A DNA stretch of 63,500 bases, counting the filler, from Collodictyon triciliatum (taxonomy: Eukaryota), in NCBI GenBank assembly GCA_043381765.1. It is 17 parts of 17 records of this genome, joined end to end, with 100 filler letters (N's around TTAATTAATTAA, not from the genome) between each part and the next. Parts side by side here need not be neighbours in the genome. Positions count along the whole stretch, not along the records: positions 40,185 to 44,097 come from JBHJMP010006718.1; 16 more parts are not named here. The stretch is one strand, 5' to 3'. Below, piece after piece: positions 4,022 through 61,743 of the stretch; position 1 is the first letter of the stretch; each line of letters opens with the position of its first letter. The position numbers and the translations under genes were made by a program. The notes beneath the pieces were generated by a model, which saw only the letters and a program-made list of their open reading frames with translations, did not search any database and was not told the origin of the DNA.

Positions 4022-7000
4022 TCCCTCGAGGGTGGCTCGATTTCAACGACACAAAGTATCGAACCATACAGTTATGCATCTGGGTTTATGCAATTGGCCT
4101 GCTTTTTCATGAACTTCAAAGAATTATATCCACTCGCCATCTTTATTTTTATGATGGATGGAATATATTCGACCTTATATTTATGTTCAGCATGTATGCA
4201 GTTATTGCAATCGAACTATACATCTACTCCTTGAATTCTTATCCGGATGACGCCACATTAGATGAAAAATTTGCTGACTTTGCTTCATCCGTTTTTATCC
4301 ACGAGTTCCTCACAAAATTGTTATCTGGTTTCGTGTTTTTTGCTTGGTTGAGGTTGCTTATGTATCAGCGAATTCACCCAGAACTTGGACCAATGCAAAT
4401 TATTGTATATGCGATGTGTGTGGATGTCGTAAGGTTTCTCTTTTTCCTAGTCATATTTTTGATGGGATTCTCTTTTGGCTTTTACGCAATTTATGCGACT
4501 TACTTGAGAAACGATGCGAATATGATCAACACAATCGGAAACCTGATTTTATATCTTTTCGGTACAACGGACTTTGACAACATCAACCAATACGACCCTC
4601 TCTTCGGTCCGTCCTATTATTATATCTATATGGTTGTGTGTGCAATTATGTTGCTCAATTTTCTGATTGCTATTCTATCCGGCACTTACGAAAACACACG
4701 CGATTTATCTGAGAAGCAGTACCGAAAGCTTTTCGCGGATGTTGTTCTTGCCTTGGACATGGCACCATTTCCACCTCCAATTAATCTACTCAGGCCTCTG
4801 TATCTCTTGATAGAAAGCTGGTGGAAGGCAAGACTGCATTATTATCCGATGTTGTGGACATTTACGAATTTAGATGCAGGCATTTCCCTCATAGTGCCTA
4901 TCCCAAATCTTAGGAAATTGTATTCATACCCAAGTAAAATACCTCCTCCGATTTTGTGTACCAAAATTGACGACTTGACATTCTGCCTGGGCTCGTTTGT
5001 CTTTGGCATATTCATCGTGCTGACTTGCCCTCTACATTTTGCATTTAAGAAATCAAATCCTACGATTCTCCAGAATGTGGAAATATTTGTGTCAATTATG
5101 TCACTAACAATACTTCATATCATTTGGCTGGCAACTCTCCCATTGTGGGGTGTTTTATGGAGCTCAAAAGCACTTATGTTTTACGTCAGAGACGCGGTTA
5201 ACTATATGAAAACATGGAAAGAGAAGGTTGGTTTTTTTTCTTTTTTTTCTTTTTAGAATTTTTTTTAGTGGGCTTGTTACTCTTATTTATCAAACTGATC
5301 ACCAGTGTAATTCTTTTTTTCTTTTCTTTTCTTTTTCTTTTCTTTTTCATTTTTCATTTTCTGGTAAATAAAATACATTATCCAAATGCAGAAAAAAGCA
5401 GCGCAAGAGGAGGAAGCTATATGTATGAATATATTTATTTTTCGTATATTTATTCAGAGTTTCATTCACATTTATTTTAAAAACAACCCGCACGATTGTC
5501 GAAGCAAATCGAATTTAAATCCCACGAATTTTCCTTCATTCATATCATAGTATAGGTATGTAACGTTTTGTGATTTAATGACTCATGATTTAAACCTTTT
5601 CTCTAATAAGTTGAGGATGAAGAGGAGGAGGATGAAGTCGAAGAGGAGGACGAAGATATAACGGAAAATGAGCAGCATGATGAAGTGGAGCAATTTTATG
5701 ATGAAAATGAGAATGCTGAGTACGAAGAGGTGCCTATCAACATCAGAGATAAATCAAACTTACCGAATGGTGTGATAGACATAACTGTTTCTGCTCAAAA
5801 AGAGGGCTATGGTGTGTATCGGCTGTTCCAACCTTTCTCAAGTGATGCAGGTCATCATGATTTTGAAGTTTATGTATGCAGTCCGTTCGTATCTGTAGGA
5901 TTAATTCACATGAGGGAAGACCCTTCCAAGATTCCAGGTCTCTGCTCAAACTCCATCGCTTACGACCCTTTGTCAGGAAAGATTTTTGTTGAAGGAAAGG
6001 TTGTTGAAGAGGTGAAGTGTGAGGACTGGAACAAAATCGGCCAGAAAGTAAAACTGACAGCTGACTACGATACTTGCAGTGTCATATTCGAGACTCAAGG
6101 ATTCAAAAAGTCAGTTCACTTCTCTGGGCTCGATAGACCAGGTATGTGCATGGCTATTGGACTTGTTGGACCGAGAGCAAGTGCAAAAATATGCAAAACG
6201 TACTACAAAAGCCTTAATCTCTGGGATACGAATCGGCTTTCAAAAAATAGCAACCAGAAACTAGCAGGAAATAGACAAACGATTGGCACAGAAACTGAGA
6301 TGCAGGAGATGGGTGGTGAAATACAAGATAGTTCTCATGAAACTATATTATCACCCAAACCTGTTTTGTTTGTTGCGAACGGGATGTCATGTTTTTCTCT
6401 AATTCCAATATTCGGCGCTGCCATTCACAACGGTGGAACTGGGTCAGGAGCGATTATGGGGCAACGAGTCATCCAAACATCATCTAAAATCTCTCTTTTC
6501 TATACGGTGCATAATGCAGGTAATACGGGCTATGTCGTTGTAGGGATAACAAAGCGCACAAATGAGATTGATGAGGAGCCAGGAAAGAGCATCGACTCGA
6601 TTGGTGTTCGGGTAGACTTAAACCGGAAAAAAGTTGTTGTATTGGGTCTCATGGGAGAGTAAGCTGTCCCTTTTGTTTTGTTTTCTTTTCTTTTCAACTA
6701 GTGCTCAAATATGTTGCTATTGCCAACTTCTTACTAACAACACATTTGAATCATCAAATCATTTTCTTGTTCACAGCCGCCAGTACTCTTTGAATGCCCC
6801 GTTCTATCCTCTGCCTGTGGGTACGACGGTCGATGTCGCCATCCATTTCGACTTTGTTGGTGAAAATGCGATGATTTCAATGAACGATATGGTGCTCCAG
6901 CGAATGAGCCTCCAGCTACCTAAGGAGTTGCCCAAGGACTTGGTTCCCGTTGTTTATCTGAATTCCAAGGGTCAGTATGTCGAGGCAAGTGAAGCAGCCT

Positions 7001-8428: not shown

Positions 8429-9146
8429 GAGACTTGGGTCGCTTGGTGGTGGTTGCCTATTTGACGATGCAGGGTTCTTCTGATTCGCCTTGCGGTTTCT
8501 TTCTTACTTTGATCTCTTCCTTTGGTGCTCTTGTGAACAGCTACTTTTTTTTTTGATTCTCGTTAGACTTCCGCTCGAGAAGAACTGTGTTCATGACAGA
8601 AGAACAAATGCTCGTGTTCGGGTGAGTGTCTCTCGAACGGAACTTGAGGCGAGTTTCTTCGAGACTGCTTGTGTGTTTCTTTGTTGCGGTCTTGCACATC
8701 ACCTGCTGATCCGATCAATACCGATTCTGCACAGACTCGCAGCCATCACAATGATCACTCAACGAACCCAACGGAAGTTACAAAACAATATCTATATTAG
8801 GCTCTATTCTGATAAAATCATTCCACAACAGATTCGTCGTTGGCAGTTACAATCAAGGGCGGAGTGCAGCATCACTTACATCTCAAATTATCACCACACC
8901 ATGAAAATAATAATAATAATAATCGCTTGCATTCCTCCATCGCCAGCAGCTTGATTGGCATTCAAATGAGTTGACAGGCGGGAAAGGTTCGGAAGGCTGA
9001 TCTGTCCTTTCCACCACACGAACACAAAGAGTCAAGCCACACGGCAGATATTATGATGAAGGACAACCTATCTTCCCGTCCAACTTACATCCACGTCTTC
9101 TTGCTCTTTGTCGTCTTCGGCTTGACTTTGTCTCCAACACAAAGAC

Positions 9147-11501
9147 ATGGGTCACGTCTGTATAGTCGGTGCCGGGCTGGCGGGGCTGAGCGCTGCGCTG
9201 AGTCTCGCTCGAAGCTTCCCAAGCGCCGCAAAGAGCGAGTCGTCAAGAAGGCTTCTAATCAGCGTTGTCGAAGCGGCTGCAGAGATTGGAGGCCGGGCAA
9301 ACACGCAGGTGATAGAGGGTGCACTGATCGATCACGGGGCGCAGTGTTGGAAGATCGACGCAGAGAAAGTGCGTGAGTTTGGACTTGAGCAAGAGCTCTG
9401 TGAGATAAAAAAGTATGTTCTTCAAAGGCCTTCTTTAACCATTTTTTTCTTCCTTCTCTTCATCTTTTTCCTTTTGCCCTTGGTTGCTTATAATTTTATA
9501 TGCCCGATACTGTATTGCAAACAAATGTCCAAAATATCGCGCCGCTTCCACAATTCATCTAGTACCTTTCTGCTTATATTATAATGACCATCAGATACAG
9601 GCAGCTTAATTACATATGTTTGGATTTAATGTAAAGGAAAACCCACCAAGGTTATTCCTGTTTTTCATGAAACATACGCGCAATATCCAGGCCTGTCTAT
9701 GTTTTCGACGAAGATGCTTTGGTTAGACCAGGCGATCCGTCTCAAGAAACAACCACAAAATATACATATCCTACTGGAATACAATCAATAGGTATGATTT
9801 CCTTTCAATTTTTTTTTCGATATCAAGGTCAAATGATTCATATACACTGAATAGCATTCTATCAACACACCATGTTTCATATGGTAGTATATACCTTCAG
9901 TCAGTTATTCCTCGTGAAGTACCAACTTTTGACGTATAGCTCACAAAATATACCGCTCGGTTGTTATGGAACGTAAGGAAAAGGAGATTGGCCTCTCCCT
10001 TAGACTTAATACATACGCCTCCAGCATCGAGGAGCACGAACCAAAGGTATATACCTGTTTCCTAGGCTAATATTATTTTTCCTGATTTTCATACAACCTC
10101 TTTCACTCAGATCCAGTTAAAATTTGTTTTACATCAACTTTATTTTTAACCTAGGATGGAACACCCCAATTCAGTCTACATGATTCCAACGGACACATAA
10201 TACTCCACGCTGATTACTTGGTTCTTTCTCAACCTGCTCCTTTGGTTAGTTAATTAAATTTAGAGAGTTAATTTTACTCCTGCAAAAAAAAAAAAAAAAA
10301 CCCACCCATTACTAATGTAGTTCGTCCAACTTTTATGACTCTTATCTTCAGGCTTTACAACTCATTGAGAACAGTCGAAACATCAAACTTGGCGATGAAG
10401 CGGTCACTGAATTAAGGAAAGTTAGATATCGAAAAGCGATCTCTATAGCCTTCTGTTGCACAGAAAAAAGGTCATATGACTACAATATTATACAAACTTA
10501 GAATCTAATTTGGTCCATTACCTATGCTGTCGTTACCACAGACCACCGCGTTAATTAGGGTTATGATATAAATGGGTCGAAATTCAATGTTTTAGTGTGT
10601 CCCTCCCTTGGTATGCGGCAGTCAATATTGATCGAAAGCATCCTATCAGGTACATTACAAGTTTCATACTATATGTATCCCACCTACCTATTAAGTGTTA
10701 TTTTATGCGACTCGCCTAAAAATATTGTTGTTACTTTAATCGAAAATATTATCATATGATTCAAAACTATTTTACATGCCATTTTTCACATATTCATTGC
10801 GCATCTCTATGTGAACTAAATCAGTTGGCTAGCTATCGAAAGCGAAAAGCCGTCTCGAATTGAGGGAAACAGAGTAATTTCTTTTAATCTTAAAAATTGA
10901 AACTTCAAAACGAAATTGATAATTCTAAATTTTTCAAATTATACAATCACATGACAGTATATTGATGACTCATATGAAAGGGCAATAAAAACCTGTTAAC
11001 ATCTTCGAAAATGTAGTCTTTGTTCATCGCACAAATGTCTCCGGCCTACAGCGAACAAAATTGGGATGCCGTAACCTCAGGATTATTCTCCTGCAAACAA
11101 GTAGATAAACTTTCTTTCCATGTCATTTTTTTTTTTTTGCAAGTTATATTTTTCAATTTAATTAATAATGATTGTAATTATGTTGTGAGTTTATTATGAA
11201 ATTTAATGGCGAATTAATTGCAATCTAGCGAGAAACATCCATGGAATTATCGAAGGAGTTAGACGATATCAAATCGCAATCTGAATCCATTCTCGGTATG
11301 TACACACAAGAGCAAAACATCGCATCCTGAATATACATTATATCCTAATGGCGGGTGCGTTACCATCTCTCTCGACAACCAATTCAAGGTAGTAGAATGG
11401 GCTTGATTGAATGGGTACACGTCTTTAAGTGGCCTTACGCGCTTCCATATTTGAACCCTGATAACTTGGCAGATTTTCGTGTCCTGAACAAGCTCCGACA
11501 T
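9147..11501 (+). CDS. Renalase-like FAD-dependent oxidoreductase, multi-exon, 3' partial
   Basis: Rossmann motif VCIVGAGLAGLSAA, IGGRA and DHGAQ; later exons encode ELRKVRY, WLAIESEKPSR and WPYALP. Confidence 0.8.
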
Positions 11502-39699: not shown

Positions 39700-40202
39700 C
39701 AGAGTCCTATCTTTCTTACTATTTAGCGTTGGAAAACTCTCTTAAAGACTGCTCTGTTGAAAAAGAGCGGACAGGATAAAAAAAAAAAACTTTTCAAAAA
39801 TGTGCACTGTGCTACATAGATGCAGTATTTTTTGAGAGAAGGGACGTGTGTTTTATTTTTTTTAAAACTATTATTCATACTACTTAGCCGAAAGCTCCCG
39901 AGACAATATGATTATTTTCTGTGTTAAATACCATAGGAAAGAACAGGAAGAACACATACATACATACATACATACATACATACATACATACATACATACA
40001 TACATACATACATACATACATACATACATACATACATACATACATACATACATACATACATACATACATACATACATACATACANNNNNNNNNNNNNNNN
40101 NNNNNNNNNNNNNNNNNNNNNNNNNNNNTTAATTAATTAANNNNNNNNNNNNNNNNNNNNNNNNNNNNNNNNNNNNNNNNNNNNATAAATTTATCTAATA
40201 AA

Positions 40203-40276
<74 letters not shown>

Positions 40277-40369
40277 AGAAGCTATTTTGATGTATTGCAA
40301 GCTTTAATACCGGCCTGCACCTTACCACTTTAACCGGCTTCATGCAGAAAAAAGAAATCCAGTTTTTGC

Positions 40370-43300
40370 TTACTGCTGGTCGTTTGGTAAAACACGTAGT
40401 TGAGGATTTACTTTTTTCTTCTTTAAACAAATAAAAACATTAGCAGCGTGTGAATGAATTGCAAACACAGATTTCTTACGTGGTTATAGAACTCCAGTCT
40501 ACGAATTAGGTCATAATCTGGATTGCTCTGCTCGTTCCAAAAAGGGAGAGCTGTGATGCCACGAGGTACCCTCTTTATAGTCGATTTTCCTTCTTTGTTG
40601 CGGATGTGCAAGCGACTGAGAGCAGACAGAGCAGTAATTCCGGCAGGAAGCTCATCAATCTGTGGGAATGGAAATATAATTACGAGTTCAAGATAGTGGA
40701 ATGGCTTTTATCATTTAGATATGTTAAACAAACCGGATTATCACGTATATCTAACTGTACAAGGCACGTTAAACTTGATAATGCTTGTGGCAGTGATGAC
40801 ACTCGATTTTGAGAGATGTCGAGGCGAACAAGGCTATTCAGATGTGATATTTCTAAAGCTAGGAGCGAGAGTTGATTTTCAGAAACTTCAAGACTAGTGA
40901 GACTATTTAGGCATGATATTTCTGAAGGAAAAGACAAGAGCCGATTTTGAGAGACGTCGAGATGGGCTAGACTATTTAAACATGATATTTCTGAAGGTAA
41001 GGACGAGAGCTGATTTTGAGAAACATCAAAGTTCGTAATGCACGTCAGACACGATATTTCTGAAGGCAAAGATGACAACTGATTTTGAGAGACATCGAAG
41101 CGAATAAGACCATTCAAGCATGATATTTCTGAAGGTAGTGATGACAACTGAATTTGAGAGACACCGAGTTGAACCAGACTATTTAGGTACCATATTTCTA
41201 AAGGCAAGGGCGACATAACATTATGAGAGACATCAAGGCGAGTTAAAACCGTCAGGTGTGATATTTGAGCAGGTACTGATGATATCTGTAAATCATGATA
41301 AATGATAAGAATGGATGTATGGATGAAGCTGATTCAAATGCAGGTATGAAATTCAATACTAATATTTTATAAAAAAAAAATTATGAATGAAAAGAAAAAA
41401 ACACGCTGAAAACCTTATTTTTTGATAAGTCCAGATATGCTAGGTTTGTAAGGGCGAAGCATGACTCCGGGAAAGATACAAGCTGTAAAAAGGAGTTGAG
41501 TTACAATATGATAAATAATAAAAATGATTTGGTGGTTTTTTATTTTTATTGATTTTTTTTTTAGGATTAAGTAAATATTACTTCGTTTGAATGGAGGTAT
41601 AGTTTCTTTAGCCCAACTAAATGCTTAAGCCAATTAGGAATATGGAAGAGCTTCATATCGCCCATCCACAGCGAGGTTGCGTGTTGGATTCCATGATTAT
41701 AAGGGGTGTACTGCACATTCATATATTGAATTTCTTCCAATTCTTGAAGGGTACCGGAGCTTAATGGATGTTGAGGAGATTCAATCATATTTGGATTTAA
41801 GTGGTCGTTTATGAATTGGGATGCAAACGAGAGTTCTTGCTCGGAAAGCGAATGGGTCGCATGGACATCAGGCTGGTCAAGCTTGGATATTGTGTTTCCA
41901 TCAAGCTTCAGAGCTTTCACCTTCTCAAGTAATCTTTTTGACAACTCGTCTTTCTTTTTCTGCAGATGAGTCACCAATTGGTTGTAAAATAATTCCTCAA
42001 CTTTTTTCTTCGGAGCTTTTGAATCGCTACCAGTGTCTTTCTCTTTCGACAGTTCTAGAAATGCAGAAATGTCATCTGGTGATATGTGATACATATCAAC
42101 CATCGTCCTTTCATCTAGTTTGTCTTGAATTTCTTGGAATCTTCCCCAGCTTTGATTTGAAATTGTATCGCTCAATTTTAAAAAGCCATGCTCTCCAAGC
42201 CACTCCACAAATTCACCCTTGTACATGTCAGCCAAAGGAGCATATTGAATTGGAAGTAATTCGTTCATCATCTTTTGAGAAAGGTTCTGTTCACCCGATT
42301 TCAATTCATCCAGGTATACACAAACTTGATCCAGAGAAGGTCGGAGCTTGTAGTTTTGCCTCCAACTTGTTTTGATGATATGGTTGAGTTCACAAGTTGC
42401 TTCTTTTGGTATTTCGGGTCGCAATCCCTTGATAATGAAGCTCTGTGGTCGTGCCTCGTTCTGGAAAGGCTCGACTCCAGAAAACATGTACCAAACGAGC
42501 ATTCCCAAAGCATACACATTACTTGGTTCTCCTCGATGCCCCTGATTCACTTCATCTTCGCCATACATTTCTGGATTATCATTATAAAACGGTTCACAAG
42601 AAACTTCATGGATTTCCGGTGCTTGCCAGTTTGCAGTTCCGCCTTGCTTGTTCTCACCAAATCTCGTCGGTAAGCTTGACCCGACTTTATCAACTTCACG
42701 GCGGCTCACTATCCCAAAATCCACAATTTTTACTGTTGCTTTGCCTACAATCATAACATTATCGGCCTTCAAATCCTCGTGATATAGGTGTTTAGAATGC
42801 ATGAAAATGAGACCTTTGCAAAGTTGATTCGTGTAAGATATTATTTGAGGTAATGTTGGCTTGATATTTTTCTTCTCCAACATCGCTTTCAACGAAATAC
42901 CTGCATTCTCCATAATCATGTAAAAGTCATCCTCTTTACGATACACACCAAATAGTTTGACTATTTTTTCACATTCATTGCATTCATATAGAAACTTGCT
43001 TTCAAAAATGAGCGATTGAATCACCTCACTGAGGGTCTGCTCGTTGCTCTTCTGGATGGTTTGGATTTTCACCACAGCACTTGTTCCTTTGAATATTGTT
43101 GTGTAAACTCGCCCATAAGCCCCCTTTGCGAGATAACCTGACAGTTCTATTTTTTCATCAATCCATTGACCTGTTAATTCCCGGTCGATTGAATCCAACT
43201 CGCGAGTTACTTCAGCAGATTGCGACGTCTTTTTCTTTTTCTCCTTCATCATAGAGGTGAATCTTTTTGAAATCCCTTTTTTAAAGAAAATATTTAATAG

Positions 43301-44097
43301 AATTCGATAACATATAATTAGATTATCATTTATCTAAAAATAACATATTTTTGAATATATTGATTAAAAATAAACCTTGTTCCAGATAGACACGCCCTTG
43401 CTTTACTGCACTTGCTTCTAGTTGATGACTCTGGTTACACACTTTCAATTCTGAGTCATCTGTCATTACTGTTGTTTGAACATAACCGTCTAATCCACGA
43501 CGCTGACATTCTGGGCATTCAAATCGATATGCTTCCACAAAATTCGGTCGAATTGACGATATTTGTTTGATGAAGGTGCAAAGAATGTCGAAAATCCTGA
43601 CAAATCTATCACCATCATCAACCTCATTTTCGTATTTTCTAATCTTGACTGAAATGCTCTTTTGGTGGATACGGTACAAAATAATCAATCCGTATCCAGG
43701 AAGCAGTTGAATTTCATCTGTTCCTGTTTTGTACGAAGCATTCAGATGTATGAACGCCACATCTCTGAAAAACTGGTCGTCATACTGAACTCCAGCTTGT
43801 GCCTCTTTTGTCAAACGAAGTGCCTGAATGACGACGTTGCTTTTGTCAGAGAGCTGGACCTCACCATTGGTGATTATTTCTACAGAGGTTTCAGCAATAC
43901 AGTTTGACTCTGCTTTTTCATTCCATAAGGCTTTGAGATTTTGGCAATCTTCCATCAGTGAGGGAAAGGCGATGCATTCTCTGTTGAATTGAATCCCGAG
44001 GCCGAAATGGTCAAAGATTCGAAGAATTGTATTGAACACATGTTCGTCTAGTTCTGCATTCAGTTCTTGTTTGATTTGGTCTTTTAGCTTGCTCAAC
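40370..44097 (-). CDS. Roco-like protein: COR - TKL-type kinase - SAM-like repeats - C-terminal LRRs, 5' partial
   Basis: COR-like ILRIFDHFGL..IAFPSLM..W and CPEC..C.QSH at 43375-44097 splice in phase to the kinase (LAKGAYGRVY, VVK, HEDLKADN, DFG, GTANWQAPE), followed by about 11 LRRs of 23 aa. Confidence 0.85.
40734..41285 (-). repeat. Coding tandem array of eight 69-nt LRR units
   Basis: The 552-nt exon equals 8 x 69; consensus LSSLPSEISCLxxLxxLDVSQNQ is also visible at DNA level. Confidence 0.92.
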
Positions 44098-48526: not shown

Positions 48527-49086
48527 GAAAAGAAAAAGGAAATATAAGCTCTTGGGACTGCGCACGCTCCTGCAAAGACTCCCTGGGTGATGGAATACTT
48601 ATTTACTATTATTCATGTCCAAGAACAAGAGGAGCCGCGGAAGCATTCAGTGCCGACAGCGGAGACCTGAATGCGAGGCACACCAGCCGAAATGGTATAG
48701 AATCACCGAGTAGGAATTGAACGCGAAGCGAATGCTTAAAAAAAAGGAAGCAAAAATTAGCTAACCATTAGCCTGAGGACTTCAATCGTGCAATTCAATC
48801 CTCTTCAAAAAGAAAAAGCCATGAGACATCATGAGAAATACTAACGAAGAAGGTAAGTCTCAAGAATATCAGCCAATCAGAACATATCCTCCGCTCGAAT
48901 GCCTGTTATATGCAGATCTGAGAATAACTGCGGAAGTACACAAGCAACAGAATCACAGAGACTGGATTGTGAAAACCTCATCCAATCTAAGGCAATTGTC
49001 GCCGCCCCCTTTATTTGGGTGTGATGCATCATTTTATCTCACAGCTGGTTCTTGATGGTTAAAAATAATTATTATTTCTATATAGC

Positions 49087-51458
49087 CTATCGTGACGGAT
49101 ACCAACCCATGCGCCCAAGCAAATCCAGCACAGACCCGCTTCGTGTGGCAAGAATACCAAAGCTGCGCGGGGAAATGACAGGGTCGAGAACAGGGAGTAC
49201 GGCGCAATCGCCATCAGTCCCAGACTCTGCAAGCTTTTGCTGGAGGAAAGCAACCCTATCGACAAGAATGATGGCCTCCACAACAGGCGAAAGGACGCAC
49301 TTCAACGCCCAGAATATAACCGCCTTGTGTCTCTGAGCCACCATGTCCTCGCGTTCATACATCAGCTGCAAGGACGGCAGGGACAGATGCTCAACTGGCT
49401 CCAGGTGGAATCTTTTTGTCAAGACAAAGTGAGCATACTCTGCAAACGGGCCACGAAACAATGCTGCACTGACATTTTTGATCACAAGCGGATACTCCGA
49501 GCGAGCCGAGGCCAGCGGCACAAACCCGACTGGGACTGCAGGCAGATGGAAAAGCTGCGGGTAGTGCTCGCGAAGAATCTTTTCCATCACACTGCGGTAG
49601 AGAATTGTGTTGAGCGCCTGCTGCCGCTCGCTTTCGGCCATCTCGTGCGGCCATCGGTCGGTGCATTGGCACGCAAGTAGCCGCGCCCGGCGGCCGAGCG
49701 CAAAGGCCTTTTCTTGAAGCGTCCTTGTCATTGGGAAGCCCAGTTCGGACGGCATCTGCGCAAGGACGCTGCTTGGGCTGCAATGCGGTGTGGGCTGAAC
49801 AGAGTCTGCAGAATCGCGAGTGGCATAGTCGACTTGCTCCGTGATAAGGTGGAAACAGCAGCTGAACTGGAAGAGCACGTCTCCCTGTCCGTTTGCAAAG
49901 AGCCGCAGCATGGAGGAGGTCAGGTCTCCGCAGCAGTGGAGCCCAATCAGCATGCTTTGGTGCTTGTGCTCTCTGCTGTCGGAAGGAGCCGTCTCGTGGG
50001 TGGAGGCTGTCACCATCTTTTGCAGCTCGCTCAAGTTGCTCTGCGCGTTGACTTGGGCAGTGATTCCTGTGTAGCTGCCTTGGCTGTGGATTCCTTTTTC
50101 TATGGTGTTTCGTGCTCAGCCTTCTTTAATTCAGAGGGATGTGTATGTGAAGATATGATACATTTTTCGTTGCGATGAGTAAGTGAGCGCACACTGCAAA
50201 AATCGGGTGAGCGCTGTTGTTACATAAAAAAAAACATAATTTCAGATAAAATGAAACAAACGAGCGGGTCATTCGTGATAAAATATGCAGTACAGACTAG
50301 AGAGTTCTTCATAGAATTGTTGGCTTTTGGTGGAGGATGCTTGAATATTATGCTCGGATGAGTCGATTCCAATCACACGGAACCCGTGTCGATGCGCAAG
50401 TATGTTTGAGAGGTATCCCTATTGAATAAGAATCAATGTTGCTTAGCAATTATTGCTTTTTTTTTAAAAAAAAAAACATTTCCTAATAAAAAGTTGAGAA
50501 AAATAGAACCTTTTTAAAAACTTTTAGTTTCTAAATAAATTTTGATATTTCCGCATTATGGGGTTGCAAAATGTTTCATCGACAGTTGTCTATAGTAAAA
50601 GTAAACCTGGCCACTCCCAATATCTATAAGATTCGTGATTTCCTTGCTATTTGCTATGTTTGCAATCGCGGGTGCCAAAACGCTAACCTTTGATTAGTTT
50701 CCATGGCTTTCAAAGGAATATTCATTTTGTTTGAAGCAGACGATTTGTACATGATAAGCGCAAAAAAAAAAAAAGAGAAGAAGAAGGAAACTAGTTGAAT
50801 CCAATATAAGGGGAAATGATGGGAAACTAGTGGCGTTTAAATACTAACGTTTATTGGTTCATTTATAACGGAGTATGGTTATTTTCTATGTTTTGCGCGA
50901 ACGCCAACATATATGTGTACCTCGTGGCGCTTCTTTTCGGTGAACCCGCGCCTCAGTTCATGAAACAATTCCTTATCGCTCTGAAATATAGACAGTGGAT
51001 TTTTTTCCAAGGAAAACTCATGCGCTGTGCGAATAAATCCCTTCAGTGATTCTGGCCATTCTTCCTGTATTCATGTGGTTCCACAGACAAGGACGATGAG
51101 TGCAATGTATGCAAAAAGTCATTTGTAACTCCAGCTTTCACAATGTTTTACACCCCAGGGTATTAATATAAAATCGTTTGGTTTTGGGCATAAAACATAT
51201 GGAAAAGAAATAAAGCCAGTAAACCTTCACAAAGCCAGACGGGAGCTGGAGGATCTCGCTGGTGTCAAGAGCCTCCAAAGGCTGATCCCATTCCCTCGGA
51301 ATATGCTGCCACAAATCGGCCACAAAGAAGTCAACCATCGAAGAATGCAGAAGCACGCTCGACACCGGATGCACAAGGAAATCAGCACAGCGACTGAGGA
51401 ATTCTTCACACGAACCCATCGACGACGGAAGGAAAAACCGGCTTCGTGGAAAACTCAT
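49087..51458 (-). CDS. METTL25: METTL25/RRNAD1-family SAM-dependent methyltransferase, complete
   Basis: VDFFVADLWQHIPREW, EKKRHE|V, LIDIGSGQ|GYLSN, LIGLHCCGDL, SCCFHL, LSPVVEAIILVDR and VLDPVISPR. Confidence 0.85.
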
Positions 51459-60238: not shown

Positions 60239-60301
<63 letters not shown>

Positions 60302-60469
60302 AAACACATAAACAAAAAACACAAAAACAAAAAACACAAAAACAAAAAACACAAAAACAAAAAACACAGAGACACACACAAATCACATACACGCACTGAC
60401 TCACTCACTGACTCACTCACTCACTCACTCACTCACTCACTCACTCACTCGCCTTCGACCGCAGCAGCC

Positions 60470-61241
60470 ATGCACCCGAGACACAGCACCCACGCCCCGT
60501 CCACGTCGATGGGCCCCGCATATGGCATGGATGCGCCGTGGGCCGCGCCGCTCGCGCACGGCTACACACACACGGACACGGTGTCGCTGCCCTACCACAC
60601 TGCAGACACAATGCCGGCGCCGGCCACGCCCGCCTTCGTGCAGGTGCAGGTGCCCATCGCGATGTACCCACACTCCTCGGCCGCCCGGAGCGACGCCGCC
60701 CTCGCCACGGGGTAAGCCGCCCAGCCGCTCGCCCATGCCACGCGCTTTTGCCTCCCTCCGCCAGCTGATGCCGCATTTGGCCCGGTGACCCACGCCTCCC
60801 TCTCTCTCTCCCCGCAGCCTGCCGCCCCTGCACGCGGTCGTCCAGGACGCTGCGCACGCCGCGGGCCGGCCGCTTGCCAGATACGGCGGAGACATCGCGA
60901 TGCCCGCCCAAATGCAGACACCGATGCAGATGCACCTCCCCATATCCGCCGACGCCTTCCTCCGGCACCACGACCACACCCGCACATATCTGCACCCCCA
61001 CCCGCTCACCCACCCGCCGCACATCCTGCTTCCATCCACGCCTGGCCCCGCGCCTTCGAAGACGTGCGTGTCTCTATCTGCATTCTCTATCGGCATGTTC
61101 TATCGGCATAATCCATCGGCATTCTCTGCCCGCAGGCCCGCGTCTGCCATCAGAAAGAAGCGTCGCGCAGCCCCTGTGCAGCCACCGGCGGGCCCGCAAC
61201 CCCCCGCGCTGCCCGGGTTGCTCCTTAGCGCCGTAGCAGCG

Positions 61242-61273
<32 letters not shown>

Positions 61274-61743
61274 CGCGGCTCCGTCCAGAGCGCGTCGGCC
61301 CACGGAGGTGAATCCATACATAGCGTACTGTACCTTGAAGCGTGCCCAGGTCCGGAAGGAACATCCGTTTGTCACAAATAGAGAGATCCTGCTGATGGTG
61401 GGCGAGATGTGGAGAAACGAGTCCTTGGATGAGAGAAAAAGGTCATTTTATTTTCTAAAGGTGTATTTATTTATTCATTCATTCATTCATTCATTCAGTG
61501 ATGTTTGGTTGTTATTATTTTGTTTTGTTTTTGAATCCTGCCGACATGCTTTCGAAAGAACTTTGTACGTTGAATTATGATTATTATGTTACTACCAAAT
61601 TTCTTTACAAAAGTATTCGATGAATATATGTACTAATAGCTTTATGATCACTTTTCACCAATGCGTGTACGATACATAGATTTGAAGGGATTGCAAAGGA
61701 AATGACCTTGAAGAATACCAGTAAATCTCTATCGGACTCATAA
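60470..61743 (+). CDS. Single HMG-box transcription factor with P/A/H-rich N-terminus
   Basis: RRPTEVNPYIAYCTLKRAQVRKEHPFVTNREILLMVGEMWRNESLDERK|RFEGIAKE; exons 60470-60711, 60818-61441 (possible internal intron about 61064-61135) and 61680-61743. Confidence 0.85.

Follow-up and report, generated by a model that had tools for sequence, protein, structure and literature searches.

A candidate Roco-type kinase with C-terminal leucine-rich repeats in the protist Collodictyon triciliatum

Can the leucine-rich repeats (LRRs) of a Roco-type kinase lie behind the kinase instead of ahead of the Roc GTPase, and would such an arrangement point to an immune sensor? This question is raised by a gene fragment on contig JBHJMP010006718.1 of Collodictyon triciliatum (GenBank assembly GCA_043381765.1), which was analysed within a joined stretch of 63,500 nucleotides, hereafter the window. 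An initial annotation, made from the sequence alone, described the fragment as a rearranged Roco-like protein and a candidate immune sensor. We give somewhat better than even weight to the reading that it is the 3′ two thirds of one gene for a soluble, multidomain signalling kinase. In this protein, the end of a COR-like dimerisation domain would be followed by a catalytically complete non-RD (HED) protein kinase, by a helical linker of about 200 residues, the first 65 of which perhaps form a SAM-type bundle, and by eleven to twelve LRRs at the C terminus.

A non-RD kinase linked to leucine-rich repeats

The 63.5-kb window is made of 16 pieces of about 3.9 kb, with a few internal gaps, joined by linkers of the form N44-TTAATTAATTAA-N44. 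Because these are joined pieces and not genomic neighbours, the adjacent pieces are uninformative about the gene fragment, which fills one whole piece (40185–44097) on the minus strand. Four long open frames on this strand are connected in frame by GT..AG introns of 100, 99, 128, 74 and 59 nucleotides, giving a spliced model of 1088 codons that is open at its 5′ end and in which every intron is GT..AG and keeps the frame. The G+C content (GC) is 0.38–0.47 in the exons and 0.13–0.31 in the introns. Exon 1 (43376–44096; 240 codons and one base) is open at the contig edge and would encode the end of COR-A together with COR-B. The putative intron 1 (43276–43375; 100 nucleotides, GT..AG, phase 1) leads from this COR-like exon to exon 2 (41582–43275), an uninterrupted open exon for the kinase, the helical linker and the initial 1.4 LRR units, as recognised by Pfam. 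Exon 3 (41414–41482) is 69 nucleotides long, exactly one 23-residue LRR, with phase 0 at both ends, and exon 4 (40734–41285) is 552 nucleotides long, exactly eight such repeats, whereas exon 5 (40480–40659) closes the array with its last regular LRR and an irregular unit, followed by the C-terminal tail. A tentative last exon with the stop codon lies at 40370–40420 (without RNA support); alternatively, reading through from 40479 would reach a stop about 18 codons further on. The initial annotation also began at 40370, the end of the stop codon in our model, so that both gene models agree. Immediately beyond the 3′ end of the gene, at the edge of the contig, the minus strand has a run of approximately 80 T (40198–40300). 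Overall, the minus-strand gene fragment with its GT..AG introns is real and intact-looking.

The protein kinase domain (42302–43150, model residues 283–565) is matched by the Pfam families Pkinase (E = 6.1e-35; 121.3 bits against a curated cut-off of 31.7) and PK_Tyr_Ser-Thr (E = 2.4e-33). The lysine (VVK), the alpha-C glutamate, the catalytic aspartate, the asparagine, DFG and APE are all in place, and by these motifs the kinase looks catalytically complete. Its catalytic loop reads HEDLKADN, with HED at 42781–42773 (H406 at 42781–42779), and subdomain IX reads GEPSNVYALG, with SNVY at 42523–42512; an insert of about 18 residues separates APE from subdomain IX. The arginine before the catalytic aspartate is thus absent, which makes the kinase non-RD, and the same is true of the four Diphylleia rotans relatives described below, all of which read HEDIKSDN. 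HED, SNVY and the post-APE insert are invariant in all five aligned family members (this gene and the four D. rotans sequences); HED and SNVY are therefore family traits and not sequencing errors. The replacements of HRD by HED and of SDVY by SNVY, both pointed out in the initial annotation, were accordingly borne out. Non-RD kinases are linked with pattern-recognition receptors.

The same annotation placed the kinase in the TKL group; that it is a kinase is clear from Pfam, whereas the group was not confirmed. Among solved structures, the single kinase sequence is nearest to STK10, MST and RIPK1, and the best full-length matches of the family profile are RIPK1, TTK and STK10 (E = 5e-23 to 9e-22), with RIPK1, a TKL kinase, at the top and TTK and STK10 within a factor of 20 in E-value. 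The two Pfam scores are likewise nearly equal. The likeness to RIPK1, TTK and STK10 is at the level of the general kinase fold only, and none of the three has HED, the insert or LRRs, unlike the gene described here. The only long relatives found for the kinase exon were two bacterial kinases, and a scan of metagenome contigs with the family alignment returned only kinases of 21–24% identity.

Among 5.8 billion clustered proteins, the only close relatives are transcripts of D. rotans from a single Trinity 'gene' (TRINITY_DN2007_c0_g1; EukProt EP00002; P0004, P0005, P0006 and P0010), whose kinases are 45–48% identical by BLASTP. HED, SNVY and the post-APE insert of the C. triciliatum gene recur in them, as does the beginning of its first SAM-like segment. 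Their open reading frames (ORFs), called complete, span 314–378 amino acids; they open at or within the kinase, and the first SAM-like segment is the last part that they encode. The sequences could be partial or could belong to shorter paralogues. The four 'isoforms' differ from one another by many substitutions and, to judge from these, look like several HED-kinase paralogues rather than splice forms. Within the window, a tblastn search with the spliced model found only itself, and a paralogue is absent from the other 15 pieces. In one freshwater metagenome (run X1), the interval 40310–44097 is matched by 25 contig pieces, 4 at 99% identity or above, 8 at 95–99% and 13 at 90–95%; this spread indicates that related strains or paralogues of the gene co-occur in that metagenome.

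The array at the C terminus comprises 11 regular 23-residue LRRs (LxxLxLxxNxLxxLPxxI; residues 773–1025) and one irregular unit, with Pfam matches to LRR_8 (1.3e-17) and LRR_14 (3.7e-18), in keeping with the approximately 11 C-terminal LRRs counted initially. One open exon (43275–41582) spans the kinase, the whole linker and the first LRR units, and the kinase–LRR linkage can therefore be read from it directly. This excludes, for the start of the array, the case of LRR exons from a separate gene, which the initial annotation had named as refuting its proposal. For the rest of the array, a separate gene is unlikely, since the borders of the later LRR exons all fall at one constant point of the 23-residue repeat and in phase 0. 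Units 5–9 form a tandem repeat of 69 bp at the DNA level (40805–41163, exon 4; 5.2 copies, 72% matches), which indicates a fairly recent internal duplication of LRRs. The highest 19-residue hydrophobic window does not exceed 1.26 on the Kyte–Doolittle scale, and no membrane span is visible; for want of a hydrophobic span, the visible protein is taken to be soluble. A non-RD kinase, a helical linker and C-terminal LRRs, standing in this order behind an N-terminal domain, is a real layout.

Two segments of the linker had been annotated as SAM-like, the first at 42041–42235 (residues 588–652) and the second at 41798–42010 (residues 663–733), both on the minus strand. Neither kept that status in full: in the linker, there was no Pfam match to SAM at E ≤ 10 and no relevant match in the PDB. 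For linker residues 20–170, the ESM Atlas returned SAM_TNK (0.88), SAM_1 and SAM_2 (0.86) and SAM_NCD1 (0.84), all below the lead threshold of 0.9, with an unnamed cluster and SpoIVA_C (both 0.87) ranking between the SAM families. Part of the first segment is conserved among the Diphylleia relatives, with G353, E354, E357, L359, K385 and L386 as invariant columns of the family alignment; a MAFFT alignment of this segment with two Diphylleia C termini looked too poor to serve as a profile. An AlphaFold model of the linker, based on the five-sequence alignment, had a predicted local distance difference test score (pLDDT) of 38.6 and stayed below 50 except for about 20 residues; as a hint of secondary structure only, it drew five short helices in the first segment and a 38-residue helix at the start of the second, with short helices after it. 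The first segment may thus be of SAM type, for which we would put the chances a little short of even, whereas the second is, on the model, more likely a long helix or coiled coil, and its reading as SAM is not supported.

The COR-like exon and its putative splice to the kinase

Exon 1 contains the motif ILRIFDHFGLGIQFNRECIAFPSLM and a CPEC...C..SH cysteine/histidine cluster. In the ESM Atlas, its nearest clusters are unnamed eukaryotic fragments (0.94–0.95), followed by COR-B/COR-A clusters: the largest set, COR-B/COR-A, accounts for 13 of the nearest 30 (score 0.93), others are likewise annotated with COR-A or COR-B, and the top ten family-bearing matches all belong to the family or clan of the first. 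A COR profile was built from 14 bacterial COR regions, drawn from 13 of 401 genomes, those with Pfam COR-B. In a local HMMER comparison, residues 4–64 of exon 1 align to the COR-A/COR-B junction of this profile, pairing 'ILRIFDHFGLGIQFNRECIAFPSLM...LW' with the profile consensus 'LLALLERFEICFPL...RFLVPQLLPEE...LW'; the score of 4.8 bits ranked second of 502, with one of 500 shuffles scoring higher, and is not significant alone. Aligned globally by hhalign, exon 1 and the bacterial COR profile run colinearly through 198 columns with a score of 11.5, a value reached by none of 217 shuffles (3.2 ± 1.8, maximum 10.6) and by none of 52 natural 240-residue segments (3.6 ± 2.5, maximum 9.9). The local alignment that ranks second is colinear with the top one and covers the COR-B helix and the motif 'fP.l.v...PC', represented here by IRPNFVEAYRFECPEC. 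On this basis, we regard exon 1 as probably a COR domain, and the encoded protein is probably, but not demonstrably, of Roco type with a rearranged domain order.

The connection between exon 1 and the kinase exon is likely, in our estimate, to be that of a single gene. Exactly at the exon 1 donor, the GC drops from 0.47 (the last 60 nucleotides of the exon) to 0.12. Intron 1 resembles the other introns in size, and its GC of 0.13 compares with 0.19–0.31 in the others. Reading on from exon 1 reaches a stop at 43328–43326, and only about 75 nucleotides lie between this stop and the first ATG in the kinase frame (43251). As the initial annotation held, the COR-like region could thus splice in phase to the kinase, in that a phase-1 GT..AG intron keeps the frame; the junction itself is spanned by no RNA read. 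Further upstream, the contig terminates at 44097, inside the presumed COR-A, which places anything 5′ of the COR-like exon off-contig and agrees with the earlier statement that Roc lies beyond the contig.

A number of observations weigh against this interpretation. With exon 1, whole or in halves, the Pfam models COR-A (PF16095) and COR-B (PF25497) gave no match at E ≤ 0.1 or E ≤ 10, a PDB sequence search gave none, a word-based search yielded 0 of 161 candidates at E ≤ 10, and phmmer found no true relative among 1.84 billion representatives. The one phmmer match, P0003, is a 2018-residue, internally repeated protein lacking COR that was matched through its repeats, and was set aside as spurious. 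A scan of metagenome contigs with exon 1 likewise produced no relative, and AlphaFold2 on the single sequence gave an unusable model (pLDDT 36.6). Even where the signal is positive, its measures are low: the ESM recognition value is 2158, under the reliability mark of 2300, the best named match shares 165 features, fewer than 170, the hhalign score exceeds that of the best natural control by little (11.5 against 9.9), and the two local COR alignments have P values of 0.024 and 0.1 and HH-suite probabilities of 2% and 0.6%. The description of exon 1 as COR-like therefore fares unevenly, being negative by Pfam, PDB and phmmer and finding a weak echo in the ESM neighbours and in the colinear alignment to bacterial COR. 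The best 60 of 1418 solved matches of the family profile include neither an LRRK2 nor a Roco4 chain, and a scan of 32 ORFs on the other contigs of the window revealed no Roc or Ras domain. In Diphylleia, the ORFs open with the kinase domain and contain no COR-like exon, second helical segment or LRR; because they show neither COR nor LRR, the full architecture is not backed by these relatives. Finally, in four public runs, all of them consisting of contigs, no RNA read crossed any predicted junction, that between exons 1 and 2 included. The matches in these runs are small pieces of 90–100% identity from freshwater metagenomes, and they cover small shares of the stretch only, so that the uncovered parts carry no meaning. 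In favour of the favoured reading, a 165-nucleotide metatranscriptome contig is identical to 41784–41948, inside exon 2. A single joint is listed for these runs, between 42675 and 42747 (side 21, with ends that are not canonical); it allows no interpretation, and no joint falls at a predicted intron.

Known Roco systems and rival explanations

In the available parts of two reviews (PMC6320773, PMC6337361), the Roco topologies given are LRR-RocCOR, LRR-RocCOR-kinase (plus extra domains) and the DAPK1 type, and Roc-COR is described as 'always preceded' by LRRs. As only these three are given there, C-terminal LRRs would constitute an order not described for Roco proteins, in line with the initial remark that the layout was not recognised as described. 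Full-text literature searches (Roco 'C-terminal LRR'; protist non-RD kinases) found, among the papers listed, no description of COR, kinase and LRR in that order, which is not proof of absence. The closest comparison is with the group-2 Roco proteins (human LRRK1 and LRRK2, Dictyostelium Roco4 and GbpC; LRR-Roc-COR-kinase). Here too, a probable COR stands directly before a Ser/Thr-type kinase (DLKxxN), and LRRs in the same polypeptide and a soluble, multidomain build are common to both. In contrast to the group-2 proteins, whose LRRs lie ahead of Roc as far as the available text of the reviews goes, those of the present gene lie behind the kinase; its catalytic loop is HED instead of HRD, and it has no WD40 or other known C-terminal domain. 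Its Roc is not seen, being off-contig, its COR is not recognised by Pfam, and its kinase is not among the nearest relatives of the solved LRRK2 and Roco4 kinases. A second comparison is offered by the brown-algal LRR-ROC-COR genes, candidate immune receptors, which, in the accessible portion of their description (PMC11378527), have N-terminal LRRs and no kinase, each LRR being on an exon of its own. Exon borders that keep to a fixed LRR register are common to both, whereas the present gene has C-terminal LRRs and a kinase, and carries most of its LRRs (eight) in one exon.

Exon 1 could be something other than COR, in which case the gene would encode an LRR kinase specific to its lineage, preceded by an unrelated orphan alpha/beta domain and involving no Roc GTPase. 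The failure of all standard COR searches, the HH probability of 2%, a kinase that is not nearest to Roco kinases and relatives without COR all speak for this explanation, which we nevertheless hold to be unlikely: the ESM Atlas neighbours are consistently COR, the colinear alignment to bacterial COR outscores all 269 controls, agreement at the level of motifs occurs at two sites in the right order, and exon 1 directly precedes the kinase, as in the group-2 Roco proteins, to follow the consulted parts of the reviews (PMC6320773, PMC6337361). To a similar degree unlikely is the presence of two genes, with exon 1 closing an upstream gene at the stop 43328–43326 and a kinase–linker–LRR gene beginning at ATG 43251 (MMKEKKKK...). 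Such a division would suit a junction without RNA reads, an ATG in the frame of exon 2 that lies 32 codons ahead of the start of the kinase domain (residue 283), and Diphylleia ORFs that are called complete and begin at the kinase; moreover, a chance in-phase GT..AG pair between neighbouring ORFs is not rare. It would, however, leave only about 75 nucleotides for a 3′ untranslated region, an intergenic region, a promoter and a 5′ untranslated region. The 16 read-through codons have a GC of 0.12 against 0.40 for coding sequence, and the putative intron matches the other introns of the gene in length, with a GC below theirs. An assembly artefact or pseudogene fragment would be compatible with a very fragmented assembly and with the small shares of the stretch present in public runs, but we consider it highly improbable, given 1088 open codons over six exons with no frameshift, pieces of 99–100% identity over exons 1 and 2 in independent runs, and intact catalytic motifs.

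The function first proposed for the locus, an NLR-like cytosolic sensor of immune or prey signals, supposes that the C-terminal LRRs bind a foreign ligand and, by way of a nucleotide switch and oligomerisation through SAM, free the non-RD kinase. The non-RD state of the kinase, the recently duplicated 69-bp units in the LRR array and exon borders at a constant LRR register, with one exon equal to one LRR, would fit such a sensor, and the last of these recalls the brown-algal ROCO genes as presented in the accessible part of PMC11378527. These are points of analogy only; a paralogue is absent from the window, and SAM and Roc are themselves putative. In addition, Roco LRRs mostly serve intramolecular or protein–protein contacts, according to the portions of PMC6320773 and PMC6337361 that were available. 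The connection of non-RD kinases to pattern-recognition receptors, for its part, is drawn here from general background and from a title in a reference list. We therefore consider an immune role rather improbable. The same holds for its boldest form, a fourth Roco topology in the deep-branching CRuMs protists, comprising Roc-COR, an HED kinase, a SAM-type oligomeriser and C-terminal LRRs, in which a ligand on the fast-duplicating LRRs of an NLR-like sensor would free the kinase via a GTP switch.

Other pieces of the window and meaning of the locus

The remaining pieces of the window contain several recognisable features, all on the plus strand unless stated. A 410-residue open frame at 4024–5253 bears a polycystin cation channel domain (PKD_channel, 3e-20; Ion_trans, 4e-12). 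NAD_binding_8 is matched at 9126–9581 (1.9e-10), Methyltransf_32 at 49090–50115 on the minus strand (1.1e-10) and an HMG box at 60789–61577 (2.9e-9), whereas a zf-RVT fragment at 28921–29292 (6e-5) suggests a retroelement remnant. In GC-rich pieces (0.52–0.58) at 34183–36062, 49025–50175 and 60239–61577, long open frames overlap on both strands, almost none of them with a Pfam match, and the composition of these pieces is quite unlike that of the kinase–LRR contig. As the GC per kb spans 0.21–0.58 between pieces of the window, the assembly may be of mixed origin. A microsatellite of the TATGCATA type ends the adjoining piece (39937–40084), and no Rfam match was found in the whole window.

Returning to the COR-like, kinase, linker and LRR protein that we favour, its regulation can be envisaged along the lines of LRRK2 and Dictyostelium Roco4. 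Dimerisation and activation of the kinase would be controlled by COR together with a Roc GTPase, expected upstream and off-contig. The LRR solenoid, which here follows the kinase and does not precede Roc, would bind a protein partner or substrate, and perhaps covers the kinase at rest.

Should the COR or single-gene reading fail, the locus would join the many lineage-specific LRR kinases of protists. If both are true, it encodes a Roco-type kinase whose LRRs have moved behind the kinase, an order missing from the topologies set out in the available parts of the reviews (PMC6320773, PMC6337361), and it does so in a lineage close to the base of Amorphea whose genomes have hardly been described. 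In that case, the HED/SNVY kinase would provide a natural variant for asking how the arginine of HRD and the aspartate of subdomain IX cooperate, and an LRR–kinase contact of the LRRK2 type could be built from the other end of the chain.

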